Source of the DNA: Spirochaetia bacterium | Lineage (GTDB): Bacteria; Spirochaetota; Spirochaetia; SZUA-6; Bin103 | DNA: 64,000 nucleotides | Assembly: GCA_965208575.1 (NCBI GenBank) | Contig: CBDBOV010000003.1 | Coordinates: forward strand, 320,001-384,000 | Direction: 5' to 3' | In this document: positions 38,086 through 45,730 of the stretch, in pieces | Layout: each line of letters starts with the position of its first letter | How positions within the stretch are numbered: the first letter of the stretch is position 1 | Notes under the pieces: generated by a model | Databases searched by the model: none | What the model saw: only the letters and a program-made list of their open reading frames with translations | What the model was told of the DNA's origin: nothing | Program-made: the position numbers and the translations under genes

Positions 38086-38607
38086 ATGGCACGGAGTGGA
38101 GAGATTACGTTCAGGGGCAATCCGATGACGCTGGCGGGCGAGCGGCTGGACGCCGGACAAGCGGCGCCCGACTTCAGGCTGCACTATTTCGACGACGGCA
38201 TGCAGGAGCTCACGCTTGCCGATCTGAAGGGCAAGCCGAGTCTGATCAGCGTGGTGCCGTCACTGGACACGCCGGTGTGCGCGGCGCAGACGAGCCGCTT
38301 CAACGCAGAGCTGGCGGCCCTGCAGGACAAGGTCAACGCGGTCACGGTCAGTTGCGATCTGCCGTTCGCGATGGCGCGCTTCTGCGGCAGCGAGGAGATC
38401 GCCAACATCCGGGTCGCGAGCGACTACCAGGAGCGTGCGTTCGGCGCCGATTGGGGGACCCTGATCGAGGAACTGAAGCTGCTTGCGCGCGCGGTGTACG
38501 TGCTCGATGCGGACGGCACCGTCGTGTACGGGCAGATCGTCCCCGAGGTGGTCGACGAGCCGGACTACGACGCCGCGCTGGCGGCCCTCAAACAACAACT
38601 CGCGTAG
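38086..38607 (+). CDS. tpx: Thiol peroxidase
   Basis: VPSLDTPVC, SCDLPFAMARFC, EPDYDAAL. Confidence 0.95.
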   Translation: MARSGEITFRGNPMTLAGERLDAGQAAPDFRLHYFDDGMQELTLADLKGKPSLISVVPSLDTPVCAAQTSRFNAELAALQDKVNAVTVSCDLPFAMARFCGSEEIANIRVASDYQERAFGADWGTLIEELKLLARAVYVLDADGTVVYGQIVPEVVDEPDYDAALAALKQQLA

Positions 38608-39338
38608 CGCCCCCCAAGCGGCCGGCCACCGCGCCGCTTCGGACCGCCGGGCCGGCGGCGCGCCAGCCGCGGCCGCGGAGACGCGGGTTCCCGCATGGAT
38701 GGGGCCGGGCGTGCGCGTGCAGGGGCAATCAGCATGCCACGCACCTATACTCTCCTCCTGCACGACACCGTGCGCGCGTACCTCCTGTCCCTGGGCGGCC
38801 GCGCCCGGCAACGCCTGCGCGAGAAGCTGGAGTTCCTGCAGCTTGGCCTGTGGGACACCGGCGTGCGCGTCAAGAAGCTCAAGGGAGCGGCGCGCGCGGT
38901 GTTCGAGGCGCGGCTGACTCGCGGCGACCGGATCCTGTTTACGCTCGGACGTGACACGGGCGGTGCCACGCCGATCTACGTGTGGGGCGTGGTGCAACAC
39001 GACGACGTCAGCGCCGCCGAGCGCCGCATCGTGCCGGCGAACGCGCCGTTTCTCGATTTCGAGCCGTTCGCCGTCGAGAATCTGCCGGAATTGGACGCGG
39101 ACTCGCTCGACGGCGAGTACTTCTCGCTGCTGCAGTCGCACCCCGCGGCCGCGCCCGGCGCCGGCGCGCGCCGCGACGCGCCGGCCGCGGCCGAGTGGTC
39201 CGCGGATGGCGCGGACACCGGGCCGCAACGCTGGCTGGTGGTGGACGACGAGGAGTGGCGGCGCCTGCAGGAGGCGCATCGGAGCGACCACCTCGAGCTG
39301 TACCTCTCCCTGACGCGCGAGCAGGCGCGCTTGCTTAG

Positions 39339-41315
39339 CCGAGGTTTGAGAGGCCGTTCTTGTAACTGTTTCCTATTACAGGAATTAGCGTGTTCATGGG
39401 TGTAAATCGTGTCCATGTAAATAGTCCTGTGGTTCAGCGTTAATTTTCTCTCATCTGGTTGACATGTAATTATTAAATGATCTACCATTCCCTCCGTAGG
39501 GTGCCCATGTACATCGACACCGTCCCCAACCGCAACTCTCCCCCAGCCGTCCTCCTCCGCGAGTCCTTCCGCCAGCACGGCAAGGTCAAAAAACGCACCA
39601 TCGCCAACCTCTCCAAGTGGCCCGATCACCTCGTCGAGGGTTTGCGCGTCCTCCTCAACGGCGGTATCGCTCTGCGCTCTCCCAACGAACTGCTCTCCAT
39701 CTTGCGCAGCTATCCCCACGGCCACGTCGCCGCCGTCCTCGGTTCCCTCCGCAAGCTCTCCCTCCATTCCCTCGTCGCTCGTCCCGCCTCCCGTGAACGC
39801 GACCTGGTCGTCGCCATGATCGTCGCTCGCGTCGTCGACGCTCGCTCCAAACTCGCCACCGCTCGCGGCCTGAACCCCGAAAGCGCCGTCTCCTCCCTCG
39901 GCCACCTGCTGCAGTTGGGAGCCGTCGACGAGAATGAGCTGTATGCCGCCATGGATTGGCTGCTCGCTCGCCAGCACGGCATCGAGCAGCGCTTGGCCAA
40001 GCGCCATCTGCATGACAACACGCTCATGTTGTACGACCTGACTTCCAGTTACTTCCATGGCCACACCTGCCCGTTGGCGCGCCGTGGTCACAGCCGCGAC
40101 GGCAAACGCGGCACCTTGCAGATCGTGTTCGGCCTGCTGTGTACCGCAGACGGCTGTCCCATCGCCGTCGAGGTATTCGAGGGCTCCACCAGTGACCCCA
40201 AGACGGTCGCCGCTCAGGTCGACAAGATTCGCAACCGTTTCGGCTTGCAGCGCGTCGTGCTGGTCGGCGACCGCGGCATGCTCACCGGCGCGCGCATCCG
40301 CGAGGACCTGCAGGGGATCGACGGCCTGCGCTGGATCACGACCCTGCGGGCGCCCACCATCCGCAAGCTGATCGAGGCCGGCGAAGTGGCGCAGACCATG
40401 TTCGACGAGCGTGACCTGGCGGAGATCAGCTCACCCGAGTTCCCCGGCGAGCGGCTGATCGTGTGCCGCAACCCGATCCTGGCCGAGCAACGGCAGCGCA
40501 AGAGGCAGAAGTTGCTGGCCTCCACGGAGGAGGAACTGACGCCGATCGTGACGGCCACGCAGCGCGCCAAAAAGCCGCTGCGCGGCGCCGCCGCGATCGG
40601 CCTGCGGGTGGGCAAGGTGATCAACCACTACAAGGTGGGCAAGCATTTCACCACCACCATCACCGACGACTCGTTCTCGTTCGTGCGTGACCTGGACAAG
40701 ATCGCGGCCGAGGAAGAACTGGACGGGCTCTACATCGTGCGCTCCAACGTGGAGCCGGAGCTGTTCGACGCCGAGCAGACGGTGACGGCGTACAAGGATC
40801 TGGCCAAGGTGGAGCGCGCCTTCCGCAGCATGAAAACGGTGGATCTGAAGGTGCGACCGATCTATCACCGCAGTGCTGACCGGGTGCGGGCGCACGTGTT
40901 CCTGTGCATGCTGGCCTACTACGTGGAGTGGCACATGCGCAGCAAGCTGGCGCCGGTGCTGTTCGACGACCACGACCGCGCCGCCGGCGAGGCGCTGCGC
41001 GAGTCGGTGGTGCAACCGGCGGAACGCTCACCGGCCGCACACCGGAAGGCGGCGAGCAAGCGTACCGACGACGGTCTGCCGGTGCACAGCTTTCGCAGCC
41101 TGATGAGCGAGTTGGGGACGCTGACGGCCAACCGCGTGCGGATAGTGGATAGCGGCGCCACGTTCACCATGCACAGCGAACCGACCGCGCTGCAGCAGCG
41201 CTGTTTCGATCTCCTGGAGGTCAGCGCCCAAGTGTAGCCAGTAACGGACATCGGCTGTTGAGCGCAATTTTCAGATCAATAACGAATTAACAAGATTCCC
41301 GCTCTGGAACTTCGG
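39339..41315 (+). mobile_element. IS1634-family insertion sequence (1977 bp)
   Basis: Imperfect terminal IRs CCGAGGTTTGAGAG / CCGAAGTTCCAGAG; 5-bp TSD CTTAG at 39334-39338 and 41316-41320. Confidence 0.95.
39507..41237 (+). CDS. IS1634-family DDE transposase
   Basis: LYDLTSSYF, RGHSRD, VGDRGM, VERAFRSMK..VRPIYH; TTGACA-18-TACCAT promoter at 39459-39488. Confidence 0.95.
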   Translation: MYIDTVPNRNSPPAVLLRESFRQHGKVKKRTIANLSKWPDHLVEGLRVLLNGGIALRSPNELLSILRSYPHGHVAAVLGSLRKLSLHSLVARPASRERDLVVAMIVARVVDARSKLATARGLNPESAVSSLGHLLQLGAVDENELYAAMDWLLARQHGIEQRLAKRHLHDNTLMLYDLTSSYFHGHTCPLARRGHSRDGKRGTLQIVFGLLCTADGCPIAVEVFEGSTSDPKTVAAQVDKIRNRFGLQRVVLVGDRGMLTGARIREDLQGIDGLRWITTLRAPTIRKLIEAGEVAQTMFDERDLAEISSPEFPGERLIVCRNPILAEQRQRKRQKLLASTEEELTPIVTATQRAKKPLRGAAAIGLRVGKVINHYKVGKHFTTTITDDSFSFVRDLDKIAAEEELDGLYIVRSNVEPELFDAEQTVTAYKDLAKVERAFRSMKTVDLKVRPIYHRSADRVRAHVFLCMLAYYVEWHMRSKLAPVLFDDHDRAAGEALRESVVQPAERSPAAHRKAASKRTDDGLPVHSFRSLMSELGTLTANRVRIVDSGATFTMHSEPTALQQRCFDLLEVSAQV

Positions 41316-44300
41316 CTTAGCAGCGAGCCTCCGCTGCTGCTGTCCGGCACGGCCGGCAGCGGCAAGACCACCATCGCCGTCTACTTCCTGTTGCGCCACC
41401 GCGTGCGACGGCTCGACGCGGCGGCCGGCGGGCGCCATGTGGCCGCGACGCTGCAAGGGTCGCCGTCGGCGCCGGAGCGGGCGCTGTTCCTGACCCACAG
41501 CGCCCAACTGAAGCGTTTTCGGAGCGGATGTATCGCGGCCTGGTGGCCGCCACCGACCTGGAAAAGGCTCCTCAGGCGGTGCGCTTCTCTACCTACCGGG
41601 AGCTGCTGGAGGAGATTCTGAGCCGCGCCGGACCGCGCGAACCGCACCGGCGGCCCGCGGGACTTGCCGAGTTTCGCGCCATCTTCCAGAACCACCCGGC
41701 AGCGGCGCGCTACGACGCCGAGCTGGTGTGGGAAGAGATTCGGGCGATCGTGAAGGGCGCGAAACCGCAGGTGAGCGGTCGCCGGTTCAGGGAGTTGGCG
41801 GCCCGCGCCGGCGCCGCCGCGGCTACCGGGCGGGAGCGCGCCGAGTTGGCGGAGTACGTGGTGCGGCTGGCCAACCTGGAGGCGGGATCCCGGCTCGACG
41901 CGATGCGCGCCCGCAGGACCTCGTTCGCGACACTGCGCGAGTTCGCGGCCTGCCTGCGCGGCGGAGACCTGTCGCGGCTGGACGAACAACAGTTCCTGCT
42001 CGATGCCGCGCTGCGCCTGGTCGAAAAGCAGTCCGCACGCCTGGGTCAGCCGCTGTTGACGCTGCGCGAGTACGAAGGGCTCGGAGCCAAGCGCGCGCCC
42101 AACTTTCCGTTCGAGCGGCAGGAGATCCACGCCTTGGCCGGGTACTACCAGGAACAGCTTGAAGCGGGCGGGTTGCACGACGAGATCGACTTGACCCGGG
42201 CGGCGCTGACCTACCTGGAGCGGCACGACGACCAGTTCCGATTCGACCTGGTGGTGTGCGATGAGGTACAGGACTTCACCGACCTGCAGTTGGCGCTGCT
42301 GTTTCGCCTTGCCGAGGATCCGCGCCGCACCGTGCTCACCGGTGACCCCAAGCAGATCATCAATCCGAGCGGGTTCCGCTGGCAGGAGGTGCGCGCCCGC
42401 TACTACGAGCGCGGCCTGCCGGTGCCGGAGATGGTCAACCTCAGCATCAACTTTCGCAGCGTTGGGAACATCGTCGGCCTTGCCAACGAGCTGCTGGTGC
42501 TGAAGCGGTCGCTGGTCGGCGCCGCGGCCGGCGAGATTACCGAACGCTGGATGTTCCGGGGGCGGCCGCCGCTGCTGGTCGAGGGGCTTGTCGAGCGCGA
42601 AGTGCTGGACGCCGTGCGCCGCGGCGGGGCGGGCCACGTGGTGCTGGTGCGCACGGCGGCGGAGCGCGATCGGCTGCGCGCGGCGTTGCAGTCGGAGCTT
42701 GTATTCACGATAGCCGACGCCAAGGGCCTGGAGTTCGACGCGGTACTCCTGTGGCGGTTCGCGGCCGCGGAAGGGGCGCCGGGACTGTGGCGGCGTATCG
42801 CCGCCGGACAGGTGCGCGGCGCCGCCGACGCTCCCCACATCCGCCACGAATTGAGCCTGCTGTATGTCGCGGTGTCGCGGGCGCGCAACACCCTGGTGAT
42901 CTGGGACGGCGAGACGGTCAGTCCGGTCTGGGGCATGGCGGCGCTGGCCACGCACGTCTACCGGTCACCGGACGCCGACGCCCTGGCCGCCACCTGGCAG
43001 CGGGTTTCGACGCCCGCCGAATGGGAGGCGCAGGGTGACTACTTCGCCGCGCGGGAGCACTACGCCGCCGCCGAAGAGTGCTACCGCAATGCCCAGGCCT
43101 CGGCCAAGGAGGAGGTGGCGCGCGCCCACCGCCTTGAACAGGAGGGAGAGCACCGCACCGCCGCCGGCCTGTTCGCCAGCCATGGCCGCGCCGAGCGGGC
43201 GGCGGCGAACCTGGAGCGGGTAGGGGAGTACCCGAATGCCGCCCGGCAGTGGCGCCGCGCCGGCGATGAGGAGCGTGCCGTTTCGTGCGAGGCGCGCCAC
43301 TACGAGGCGGCCGGCAACTTCAAGGCGGCCGCGAAGCGCTGGCGGCAACTGGGTGACGAGGCGGCGATGCTGCGCACCTGGGAACGCGGTCGCCAGTACC
43401 GGCAGATGGCGGCGTTCTACCGGGAGCGGAAGGTGAGCGGCGAGGCGGCGCGTTACCTGAAGCTGGCCGGCGACCATGCCGCAGCGGCGGTCGAGTTTCG
43501 CCGCGCCGGCATGCTGCAGCTTGCGGCGCAGGAGTTCGAGCGTGCGCGCGACTACAGGCGTGCGGCCGCACTGTACCGGCGGCTCGGAGACAGCGCCGCC
43601 CTGCTGCGCTGCCTGGGATCGATGCACGTCGGCGGCGCCCACGAAGCGGCGCTGGTGTACGAGGGCCAACGCAACTGGCAGAAAGCGGCCGAGCACTTCC
43701 GCCGCTACGCCGACAGCTCGCCGGAGGCGCGCGCCGACCTGGAACGGCGCCTGGCCACCATCACTCCCAAGCGCCCCGGCATGCGTGCGGCGGTACGCAT
43801 GGACGCCCTCGGACATCACCGGGGCGCGGCACCCATATACGAGCGCCACGGCCACTCGCTCCGCGCCGCGGAGCTGTACAGCGCGAGTGGCGAGCATGAA
43901 CCGGCGGCGCGCTGCCTGGCAGCCAGCGGCCGGCTCAAGGATGCCGCTCTGGAGGCACTGCGCGCACCCGCGGACAGCGCCCTCGATGTTGCGGTCGAGA
44001 ATCTGTACGGCTACGTGCTCGGCAACCCGGCGCCTGGAGCGCGGGTTGCGCAGGACAAGCAACTCGTGACACGGGTCGGCGAACTCGCGCGCGCAGCCGG
44101 GCGCCTGGCGCGTGCCGGCGAGCACCGGCGTGCACTGGCGCACTATCTTGCGCTGCGGAAACTGCCCTTGGAGGGGGACGCGTTCCGGGCCGAGTTGCTC
44201 GTCGCCTATGCCGGCCTGGAGCGCCATGGCGACGCGGTCGAACATTGCCTGCGGCAGGGTGCGCCCGGCGCGGCGCACGACTACCTGGACGAATATCCCG

Positions 44301-45097
44301 ACGCGGACTGGCCGATCGCCGAGGTGGAGCGGCTGGCACAGGGCGCGGACGGACGGCTCGGCGGCGTCGACAACGGCGACATCGCGGAGGTGCTGTTCCG
44401 GATCATGAATGCCTGCTTGCTGCGTGGCCGTGAGGCCGACCGACGGCCGCGCCTGACCGCCCTGCTGCGCGGCATGGCGCCGGAGTTCGCGTTCTGGACA
44501 CCTCTGTCCCGCGATTGCAGCGAGCTGCTGATCGCGCTGCGCAGCTACGATCACGTGCTGGGCGTGGTGGCGTACCTCTCTGTCTCCGGCATCGAATCCG
44601 CCGACCAGCGGTACTTTCTCGACCGGCTGCAAACAGTGGCGGAGGTCGAGCGGGACCGGGAGCTGGCGCTGTGTACGCTGCTCGGGGACGACGCGGCGTT
44701 CGAAGCGGCAATCGCCGATATCGAGCCGGCGCGGCACAATGTTGCGCTGTTTGCCGAGAGCGGCGCGCGCTACGGCGAGGCGGTCGCCATCCTGCTGGCT
44801 TCGGGCGAGGCCGGCGCCGCGGCGTCGGTCTGCCTGCAGCACGGAGACTTCGCCGAGGGCGGGCGCATCTACGAGCAGTCCGGAGACCTGCGACAGGCGG
44901 CGCGCACCTTTCGCGACGGTGAGCGGTACGACGATGCACGGCGCTGCTACGCGGCGCGCGGCGACGAGGCGGGGGTAGCACGGGTGTTCGAACGGGAGCG
45001 CCGCCATGACGAGGCGATGGCGATCTGGGAGCGCCTCGGCAGGAAGCGCGAAATCGAGCGCCTCGCCCGCAAGATGGCGCGCGGCGGATAGGCCGCG

Positions 45098-45730
45098 TCA
45101 GTTCCATCGGTAGCTGTACAGCCGCGCGCCGTTCAGCAGGAAGCGGATCTTCACGGTGTCCGGCAGCGCGCCGGGATCGCCGTTCCGCCAGCGCAGCTCG
45201 CCGTCCAGGTCGTCGCCCCGCAGCGGCACGCACCGTTCGCGCGAGAAGCCTTCGAGTACGCTGCCGTCGGCGCGGCACAGCTCCGCCGCCACGCTGCCGC
45301 GGCCGGCGTCCGCATTCACGACCAGCGTCCCGGCGCCGGCTGGGCGCGGCACCGCCCGGGTCGTGACCATGCCCGTCTGCGGAGCGTGCAGGGCGATGAA
45401 CCGGTCGCGCCGCCAGGTGGCGCGCGCCAGACACTTGACTCGCTTCTCCAGGTCGGTTTCGCCGTGCGTGTGCCGGCAGCCGGTGTAGTACCAGTGAATG
45501 TCGTCGCCCGCCACGACCGGTTCTTTGGCGGTGCCGATGATCATGCCGCGGTCGAAGCCGTCGCCGCGCGGGATCGCCGGCGTGCGCTCGCGGTCGGCGT
45601 GCTCCCACAGCACGCCGCTCTTGCGCCCGACCTGCACCTCGCGGTGGATGCCGCGCTGCTGCTCGATCAGCGTGGGATCCAGCAGCAGGACGCTCTCGCC
45701 GGCACGGCCTTCAGCGTTCATGGCGCCCAT
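45098..45730 (-). pseudogene. Glycoside-hydrolase-like beta-propeller protein, probably internally deleted
   Basis: N-terminal LLLDPTLIE joined almost directly to C-terminal motifs (DDIHWYYTG, ATWRRDRF, VVNADA, LYSY). Confidence 0.5.

Follow-up and report, generated by a model that had tools for sequence, protein, structure and literature searches.

The window, a 64,000-nucleotide stretch of a Spirochaetia bacterium genome (assembly GCA_965208575.1, contig CBDBOV010000003.1, positions 320,001 to 384,000), harbors a broken gene for a protein combining a RelE-like domain, a UvrD-like helicase and a helical-repeat tail. The layout of the open reading frames (ORFs) and their translations revealed three collinear plus-strand pieces that make up one gene at 38734-45091. 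The reconstructed gene comprises 1458 codons, all of which align to intact homologues (the closest being P0004, with 1466 aa and 91% identity), in agreement with the length of about 1460 aa given in a note made earlier from the sequence alone (the original prediction), and the locus is a pseudogene copy of a single-polypeptide protein of roughly 1458 aa. As judged from its translation, the N-terminal piece (38734-39339, plus strand, 202 codons, 87% identity to P0004 residues 1-204) encompasses the RelE/YoeB-fold domain (residues 4-100, 38743-39033, plus strand), a disordered linker, a conserved NAPFLDF motif and the Q-motif LTREQ. It is followed by an insertion sequence (IS) of the IS1634 family, 1975 bp in length with imperfect terminal inverted repeats (39340-41314, plus strand), which contains a DDE transposase gene of 586 aa (39477-41237, plus strand) and is bordered by a 7-bp target-site duplication, GCTTAGC, recognized by sequence comparison on the left (39333-39339) and on the right (41315-41321). 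The middle piece (41322-41519, plus strand, 66 codons, 88% identity to P0004 residues 203-277) starts with SEPPLLLSGTAGSGKTT, carries the Walker A motif GTAGSGKT (41346-41369) within SGTAGSGKT as well as motif Ia (LFLTHS), and ends at the site of a 1-nt deletion in a run of T (41516-41519, plus strand), after which the old frame stops at 41619-41621. The third piece (41519-45088, 1190 codons) encodes the remainder of the SF1A UvrD/PcrA/HelD-like helicase, namely a helical insert of about 210 aa and motifs II-VI (41519-43006, plus strand), and a predicted TPR-like alpha-solenoid of about 690 aa (43007-45088, plus strand), and is closed by the stop codon (45089-45091, plus strand). As anticipated earlier, the N-terminal part persists as an open frame of 236 aa (38695-39405, plus strand), which uses an alternative upstream ATG and whose last 22 aa are encoded by the IS.

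The N-terminal domain exhibits the fold of RelE-type toxins, as the original prediction had proposed. In the AlphaFold2 (AF2) model, based on 38 homologues, residues 1-100 reach pLDDT values of 76-91 and are arranged as beta-alpha-alpha-beta-beta-beta-beta followed by a helix, which represents the compact RelE/ParE (BECR) fold. The best solved matches found by Foldseek were archaeal RelE (1wmi, E 6.6e-5, TM 0.74), YoeB, RelE and YafQ, and the VIA fold search, which is independent of Foldseek, filled ranks 1-25 nearly exclusively with RelE, HigB, YoeB, YafQ and ParE structures (Z 11.3 to 5.9), including 6af3 (11.3), YoeB (9.7), aRelE (9.5), ParE1 (8c24, 9.2) and the CARF-RelE protein Cami1 (8phb, 8.3). 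Eight residues (W40, E58, R66, F69, T70, W84, H89 and D90) are invariant, and four more (K47, K48, R60 and Y82) almost so; R66 lies at the start of beta4 and H89 just after beta5, which we take to be the topological places of R65 and H83 in YoeB. A profile of the domain, built from 38 loci of several phyla, additionally recovered stand-alone proteins of 93 aa among 5.8 billion sequences (E 8e-6 to 5e-3), named RelE/StbE by one source, and hhalign joined them to the N-terminal domain with a probability of 98.2% (E 4e-14, alignment A5). The motifs VKK[LI]KG, FEAR, R[IF]xF and VVGxHD are common to both and cover the invariant E58, R66, H89 and D90 together with the nearly invariant K47, K48 and R60, although the stand-alone relatives are small single-domain proteins. 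None of 80 loci with such stand-alone genes had a helicase match beside them, and a quick scan of 37 loci revealed no uniform partner (antitoxin) ORF; against the Pfam HigB-like and ParE models the stand-alone proteins matched weakly (3 of 18 each, E about 1e-3). The host genome (G000) is itself rich in type II toxins, with 16 matches to Pfam ParE_toxin and three to YoeB_toxin.

The central region was likewise found to be a UvrD-type helicase with a full set of superfamily 1 (SF1) motifs, as claimed before, on the evidence of Pfam, of invariant columns and of Foldseek. Pfam recognized UvrD-helicase (1.4e-8) and UvrD_C (1.4e-7) in the protein of the window, in which the motifs read LTREQ, GTAGSGKT, LFLTHS, CDEVQD (II), GDPKQIINPSGFR (III), NFRS (IV), TIADAKGLEFD (V) and LLYVAVSRARNTL (VI, with YVAVSRARN), and all of them (Q, I, Ia and II-VI) are invariant or nearly so in the 38 homologues. 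A full-length model of a short-type member (P0079, 1169 aa, mean pLDDT 78) comprises the RelE-like domain, a disordered linker at 108-166, the helicase with its helical insert of about 210 residues and a solenoid from residue 769, and its best Foldseek matches were PcrA (1pjr, 3.6e-10), HelD (8qn8, 5.1e-10, an RNA-polymerase-bound structure) and UvrD (2is4, 2.5e-9), along with AddA, Rep and RecB. The NCBIfam equivalogs for UvrD, PcrA, Rep, RecB and HelD were not reached, with a best score of 36 bits against cut-offs of 419-1144 (34 bits against 1144 for TIGR01075). The motor fold and motifs are thus held in common with UvrD, PcrA, Rep, HelD and the GajB protein of Gabija, unlike which the present family possesses the helical insert, the RelE-like domain and the solenoid tail and lacks a GajA partner.

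Behind the helicase, the roughly 690 residues of the tail are helical repeats, which in the model of P0079, a member of the paralogue type, consist of helices of about 10 residues with a 13-residue period (GxxxxAAxx[WFY]xxx). The earlier designation of this tail as a TPR solenoid stands as regards the helical repeats and fails as regards TPR proper, with no Pfam TPR match in the protein of the window at E values up to 1 and a 13-residue period; some homologues and distant relatives score weakly on the Pfam TPR, SNAP and Clathrin-repeat models, and the tail is best described, from modelling, as a TPR-like alpha-solenoid and not a canonical TPR array. Tandem Repeats Finder returned only two trivial short arrays from the solenoid DNA, indicating that the repeats are ancient and not recent DNA duplications.

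Both lesions of the gene, which the original prediction had described as doubly inactivated, were substantiated by the 7-bp duplication, the 1-nt deletion and agreeing read contigs. The IS entered between the Q-motif and Walker A, eight codons before the latter. Its transposase scores 323.8 bits against the NCBIfam IS1634 model NF033559 (cut-off 100; E 2.2e-96) and matches Pfam DDE_Tnp_1, and its boundaries follow from 24 full-length copies in the same genome, at least 99% identical and all spanning 1-1975, so that transposase type, inverted repeats, target duplication and copy number agree with membership of the IS1634 family. Altogether 35 matches were observed in the genome, which include the 24 full-length copies (99-100%), five at 95% and six partial ones; one of the 23 full-length copies outside the window locus lies at G000:C3:292743-294717, about 27 kb upstream of the window start. 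Read depth over the IS amounts to 600-2800 compared with 5-70 on the flanks (10 to 50 times). This massive IS1634-family expansion suggests that erosion of the genome by the IS is still under way.

At the frameshift the window reads AAGCGTTTTCGGAG, whereas relatives read AAGCGGTT[CT]TCGGAG and two intact congeners read AAGCGGTTCTCGGAG and AAGCGGTTTTCGGAG. Contigs from public sequencing runs were compared with window positions 38600-42000. Those of runs X1 and X2, derived from one sample, are identical to the window across 41361-41633, indicating that the missing T cannot be put down to an assembly error confined to the window, and a near-identical contig of X13, from another study, has one extra T behind 41515 (depth 7.9 of 10.9), which restores the reading frame. 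IS-free contigs joining 39335 to 41320 via CG were detected in X1 (depth 8.8), X2 (4.7) and X13 (4.5), with the junction matching exactly the sequence of the 91%-identical homologue, and X5 likewise has a contig that spans the site without the IS (extra T at 0 of 6.83, and one gap within 41315-42000). When the window copy is compared with intact congeners, the ratio of non-synonymous to synonymous substitution (dN/dS) lies at 0.15-0.45 in all regions, no higher than the 0.27-0.66 between two intact copies. The gene was therefore inactivated recently, in a genome undergoing IS expansion, and both lesions are young, since many near-identical IS copies, IS-free and in-frame alleles in related strains and a low dN/dS were all observed. 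Runs labelled as sponge or coral-reef metagenomes (X13, X16-X20) hold parts of the stretch, and the X13 contigs (records 15 and 16) show one differing letter over 41356-41876, indicating that a very close relative lives in a sponge or coral-reef type of habitat.

The intact relatives represent a large family. With the C-terminal 1198 aa as query, a word-indexed search returned 431 relatives, the close ones all measuring 1410-1520 aa, and when 1.84 billion representatives were scanned exhaustively with HMMER, 2554 matched at E ≤1e-3, 178 of them at ≤1e-30; the hidden Markov model (HMM) of the N-terminal domain matched 107 of the 149 best representatives, most others being fragments. Databases name the members UvrD-helicase domain-containing protein or hypothetical. 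Conservation differs along the protein: pairwise identity averages 0.65 in the helicase core and 0.63 in the RelE-like domain, against 0.45 and 0.36 in the two tail halves. In a distant group (800-1900 aa) the N-terminal domain and the helicase are retained but the C-terminus is different, with classic TPR_1/TPR_2 arrays, Sel1 or SNAP-like repeats; P0181, with a TPR plus LRR tail, and P0192, with a Sel1 tail, are without a match to the N-domain HMM, P0241 (1899 aa) has an OB-fold ahead of the RelE-like domain, and P0211 (1376 aa) has a second P-loop/UvrD_C module behind the repeats. An unchanging effector and motor combined with repeats that vary is what one would expect of a sensor. The genome of the window also contains an intact shorter paralogue with a 1233-aa open frame (G000:C6:1433596-1437177; loci L082 and L084), 67-73% identical and consisting of the RelE-like domain, the helicase and part A of the solenoid only, and a congener has the same pair of a long and a short member (L001/L002).

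Among species-representative genomes the carriers are mostly Spirochaetota, the others belonging to Acidobacteriota (including Acanthopleuribacter and Sulfidibacter), Ignavibacteriota, Marinimicrobia, KSB1, Calditrichota, Aminicenantes and Desulfobacterota. Within the host's own family, 21 of 23 genomes have the gene, and the remaining two are 81% and 90% complete; the other seven families of the order have it in 9 of 37, and in an even sample of the phylum the N-domain profile detected it in 10 of 301 genomes, with frames of at least 1360 aa unless cut by a contig end. Some genomes contain two to four copies or fragments, including tandem copies, within about 20-32 kb, which suggests local duplication and decay; such clusters occur at G003:C5:2822681-2854413 and in G022, where L003 and L036 are about 20 kb apart. 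Plasmid searches yielded 130 matching records, only one of which includes the N-terminal domain, namely a 1095-aa distant member (L096; NC_019755.1, 16408-19695) on a 29-kb plasmid of the cyanobacterium Crinalium, with ParA, DUF262, DUF3696 and two integrase genes as neighbours; the matches on Shigella and Escherichia plasmids are generic, covering helicase residues 517-871 only at 24% identity. In one deltaproteobacterial metagenome-assembled genome, the ribosome-rescue gene smpB (L021:9405-9920; Pfam SmpB 5.5e-61) is the immediate upstream neighbour in the same orientation, separated from the member by 70 nt, an arrangement not seen in two related loci. At the window locus, an ORF of 210 aa without Pfam match converges on the gene (45098-45730, minus strand); it occupies the same place in a congener at 82% identity and is not among neighbours conserved across the family.

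Literature searches turned up no description of a RelE-UvrD-repeat protein or of prokaryotic TRANK1 relatives, and in the Gerdes 2025 survey of multidomain RelE/ParE toxins (PMC11980606) the words helicase, UvrD and TPR are absent, though its supplementary tables might list 'exempted' fusions. The family is large and unnamed, and effector-NTPase-repeat conflict proteins and RelE-fused helicases are already known kinds. Among the closest parallels is CnuH of the CoCoNuT systems, in which, as in the present family, an SF1 helicase is preceded by a domain of this kind (RelE/colicin D fold, 'RNase toxin-like'); that domain was detected by structure only, bears no likeness to characterized toxins and is predicted to have an RNA target in defence. 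CnuH also has an SmpB-like OB domain, and the distant relative P0241 likewise places an OB-fold before its RelE-like domain. CnuH is, however, UPF1-like (SF1B) and belongs to multi-gene McrBC-type operons, whereas the proteins described here have a UvrD-like (SF1A) motor and a long repeat tail and are encoded by a solitary gene; neighbours of the McrB or McrC type were absent from the 170 flanking ORFs of 22 loci. Cami1 combines a RelE-fold effector with a sensor in one polypeptide and stops translation in defence, and it differs in that its CARF sensor binds cyclic oligoadenylate, that it has neither helicase nor repeats and that it depends on type III CRISPR. Avs and bacterial NLR-like STAND sensors are single genes with an N-terminal effector, a central NTPase and variable C-terminal TPR-like repeats. 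The present family parallels this layout in a single gene with effector, NTPase and variable repeats, but its NTPase is an SF1A helicase with all helicase motifs and not a STAND ATPase, its effector is constant and not swapped in the members examined, and the sampled loci have no defence-island association. A helicase with a RelE-like domain next to type I-K Tiamat is described in a preprint (10.64898/2026.09.30.754977) as belonging to a multi-gene neighbourhood with Tiamat and a methyltransferase.

The original prediction had also pointed to eukaryotic TRANK1, and this resemblance is real at the level of sequence. The search was restricted to proteins longer than 2097 aa, and two eukaryotic TRANK1-like sequences were examined. 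Three matches were obtained, two of which are named TPR and ankyrin repeat-containing protein 1(-like) by their source, a nemertean one (E 1.7e-19) and a chytrid one (E 2.2e-7); the pairwise alignment of P0003 (188-637) with P0373 (1492-1999) reached E 4e-32 with 26% identity over 521 columns. It spans the helicase insert (LTxxEYxxxGxKxAPNF), motifs II-VI, a post-helicase STxxEWxxxGDxF element and the first solenoid repeats, and because it runs past motifs II-VI into the post-helicase element and the first repeats, the similarity is specific to the helicase-plus-repeat module and not a generic UvrD likeness. The family is closer to the TRANK1-like proteins than to the canonical UvrD models (Pfam E 1e-8), although those proteins, at about 3000 aa, have ankyrin and TPR regions ahead of the helicase, unlike the members described here. 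Weak matches to the N-domain profile were observed about 200 residues before Walker A, at equivalent positions in P0375 (1019-1068) and P0373 (997-1052), for example RLFESHLNGGSRIIFQL...AIRVWGF and KKIKMLAGGDW...VHKIK...RLFRVKIPGG. With hhalign probabilities of only 2.6% and 6.6% and catalytic-type residues not kept, a RelE-like domain at the matching position of TRANK1-like proteins is only hinted at. According to two expression studies, influenza infection raised the expression of three genes in the chicken ileum at 12 h, TRANK1 among them (PMC8517014), and crocodile cells exposed to a viral mimic had TRANK1 among their most strongly induced genes (PMC5702629). A speculative and rather doubtful scenario would regard the RelE-helicase-solenoid architecture as an ancient antiviral effector reaching from bacteria and archaea to eukaryotes, with TRANK1 as a descendant that keeps the helicase-solenoid part and, about 200 residues ahead of its Walker A, a degenerate RelE-fold remnant, and with the prokaryotic form as an NLR-like sensor whose SF1A helicase, replacing the STAND ATPase, would gate a ribosome-directed RNase.

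As to the function of the intact protein, we tentatively favor a single-protein immune system in which a helicase gates translation arrest, a reading given slightly less than an even chance. Along the lines of the original prediction, the variable repeat tail would recognize a trigger, possibly an invader protein or a nucleoprotein state; the helicase motor would bind nucleic acid and convert ATP hydrolysis into a conformational switch; and the invariant RelE-like domain would then act on translating ribosomes, most likely by cleavage of A-site mRNA through the conserved set E58, R60, R66 and H89, so that translation would be arrested in an abortive-infection manner. A tentative case for this proposal is made by the constant effector and motor with variable repeats, by the patchy, multi-phylum and multi-copy distribution, by the virus-induced eukaryotic relative and by published precedents, which include RelE-helicase and RelE-sensor proteins in defence, according to the consulted parts of PMC11090510 and of preprint 10.64898/2026.09.30.754977, with the RelE-like domain on the Tiamat type I-K helicase and CARF-RelE Cami1 described in the latter. 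The single-gene nature put forward in the original prediction is borne out, and no adjacent cognate antitoxin gene was found either in the window or as a conserved neighbour in 65 loci.

Several observations weigh against an immune role or against a toxin-like activity of the N-terminal domain. The N-terminal piece has no Pfam, NCBIfam or PADLOC match, the N-domain profile found nothing significant among PDB sequences (the best being the McrB N-terminal domain, E 0.06), and hhalign aligned the domain with the genome's own YoeB, FEARLTRGDRILF with WSRRITREHRLVY, at a probability of only 0.2%. Catalytic equivalence to YoeB and RelE would draw on topology and on the numbering of residues, and the survival of the open 236-aa N-terminal ORF suggests that the free domain is not strongly toxic alone. 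For the helicase, PADLOC-DB 2.0 gave only generic GajB or DRT-helicase matches (1e-9, about 90 residues). All-against-all BLAST of the flanking ORFs of the 65 loci revealed no conserved neighbour, the largest cluster comprising 10 loci with scattered positions and generic families, and Pfam on the 170 flanking ORFs of the 22 loci recognized mainly transporters, metabolic enzymes and regulators. Toxin-antitoxin (TA), abortive-infection (Abi) or mobile genes lie near about 8 of the 22 (L013, L014, L016, L026, L035, L046, L058 and L063). PADLOC, applied to 83 ORFs of 11 loci with a threshold of E 1e-15 or better, identified a specific candidate-defence neighbour at one locus (L035), the remaining matches being generic ones to ATPases, regulators or subtilases. 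The 35 kb surrounding the gene in the window contain housekeeping genes and no defence neighbour, and are collinear with the congener on both flanks. The enrichment of homologues in defence islands that had been suggested as a check was consequently not borne out, with mostly metabolic neighbours at the 22 loci and a specific PADLOC neighbour at one of 11, and no enrichment of defence genes was seen among neighbours in this small sample (22 loci for Pfam, 11 for PADLOC, no background control). No copy was present in 50,697 phage records, and IMG/VR gave one marginal partial match of 42 residues. Retention in 21 of 23 genomes of the host family is unusual for defence genes, and dN/dS (0.15-0.51) places all domains under purifying selection.

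These last observations fit the chief alternative, a lineage-specific RNA or ribosome surveillance factor without an immune role, in which the RelE-like domain would occupy the vacant A site of ribosomes that have stalled or collided and might cut the mRNA, the helicase would strip or translocate mRNA and the solenoid would recruit partners. In its favor are the near-universal (21 of 23) and syntenic presence in the host's family, purifying selection on every domain, the mostly housekeeping neighbours, isolated cases of a member lying next to SmpB (L021) or to YchF and RF3 (L071), and the fact that across phyla the N-terminal domain is conserved to the same degree as the motor, as would suit a target that is itself conserved, for example the ribosome. 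The gene is, however, found in only 10 of the 301 phylum genomes and is not in the sampled genomes of most families, its double inactivation shows that this host can do without it (albeit with a paralogue left), paralogue expansion and fragments are seen, and the C-terminal repeats are swapped (TPR, Sel1, LRR), which would be unexpected for a fixed housekeeping interface; surveillance is considered rather unlikely, though it is the main competitor of the helicase-gated immune system. An accessory helicase of the UvrD/PcrA/HelD kind, associated with DNA or transcription, with the RelE/ParE fold as a non-catalytic adaptor (for example ParE-like binding to gyrase or to RNA polymerase) and the solenoid as a scaffold, appears improbable: in structure the motor comes closest to PcrA, RNA-polymerase-bound HelD, UvrD, AddA and Rep, the N-domain model resembles ParE toxins (ParE1 8c24, Z 9.2) almost as closely as RelE-type RNases, and the N-terminal domain has no sequence-level match to characterized RNase toxins, but its closest sequence relatives are stand-alone proteins labelled RelE/StbE that have the Glu, Arg and His found invariant here, the neighbourhood contains no conserved genes of repair or replication, and the distribution is patchy. 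A cis-regulated TA-like module for stress or dormancy, with helicase and solenoid as a built-in antitoxin until a physiological and not viral signal arrives, is very improbable, for although the N-terminal domain is homologous to small stand-alone RelE/StbE-like proteins, no separate antitoxin-like neighbour exists, the host genome is rich in TA toxins (the 16 ParE_toxin and three YoeB matches) and fused TA genes are documented for the superfamily (PMC11980606, in the portion consulted), an ATP-driven regulator of 1350 aa far exceeds the needs of neutralization, the truncated N-terminal ORF survives without its supposed inhibitor and nothing links the gene to stress regulons.

If the proposed reading is right, the family would constitute a class of prokaryotic machines for immunity or RNA surveillance, each encoded by one gene, that has so far gone undescribed, occurs in many phyla and joins a translation-arresting RelE-type domain, a helicase motor and a variable repeat sensor. 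It would also offer the first mechanistic handle on TRANK1, a large virus-induced vertebrate gene with a specifically related helicase-repeat module, the bacterial proteins being open to expression, mutation and phage challenge. For the host genome, the locus represents one casualty of the massive spread of this IS1634-family element, and the function of the broken gene may be covered by the second paralogue.

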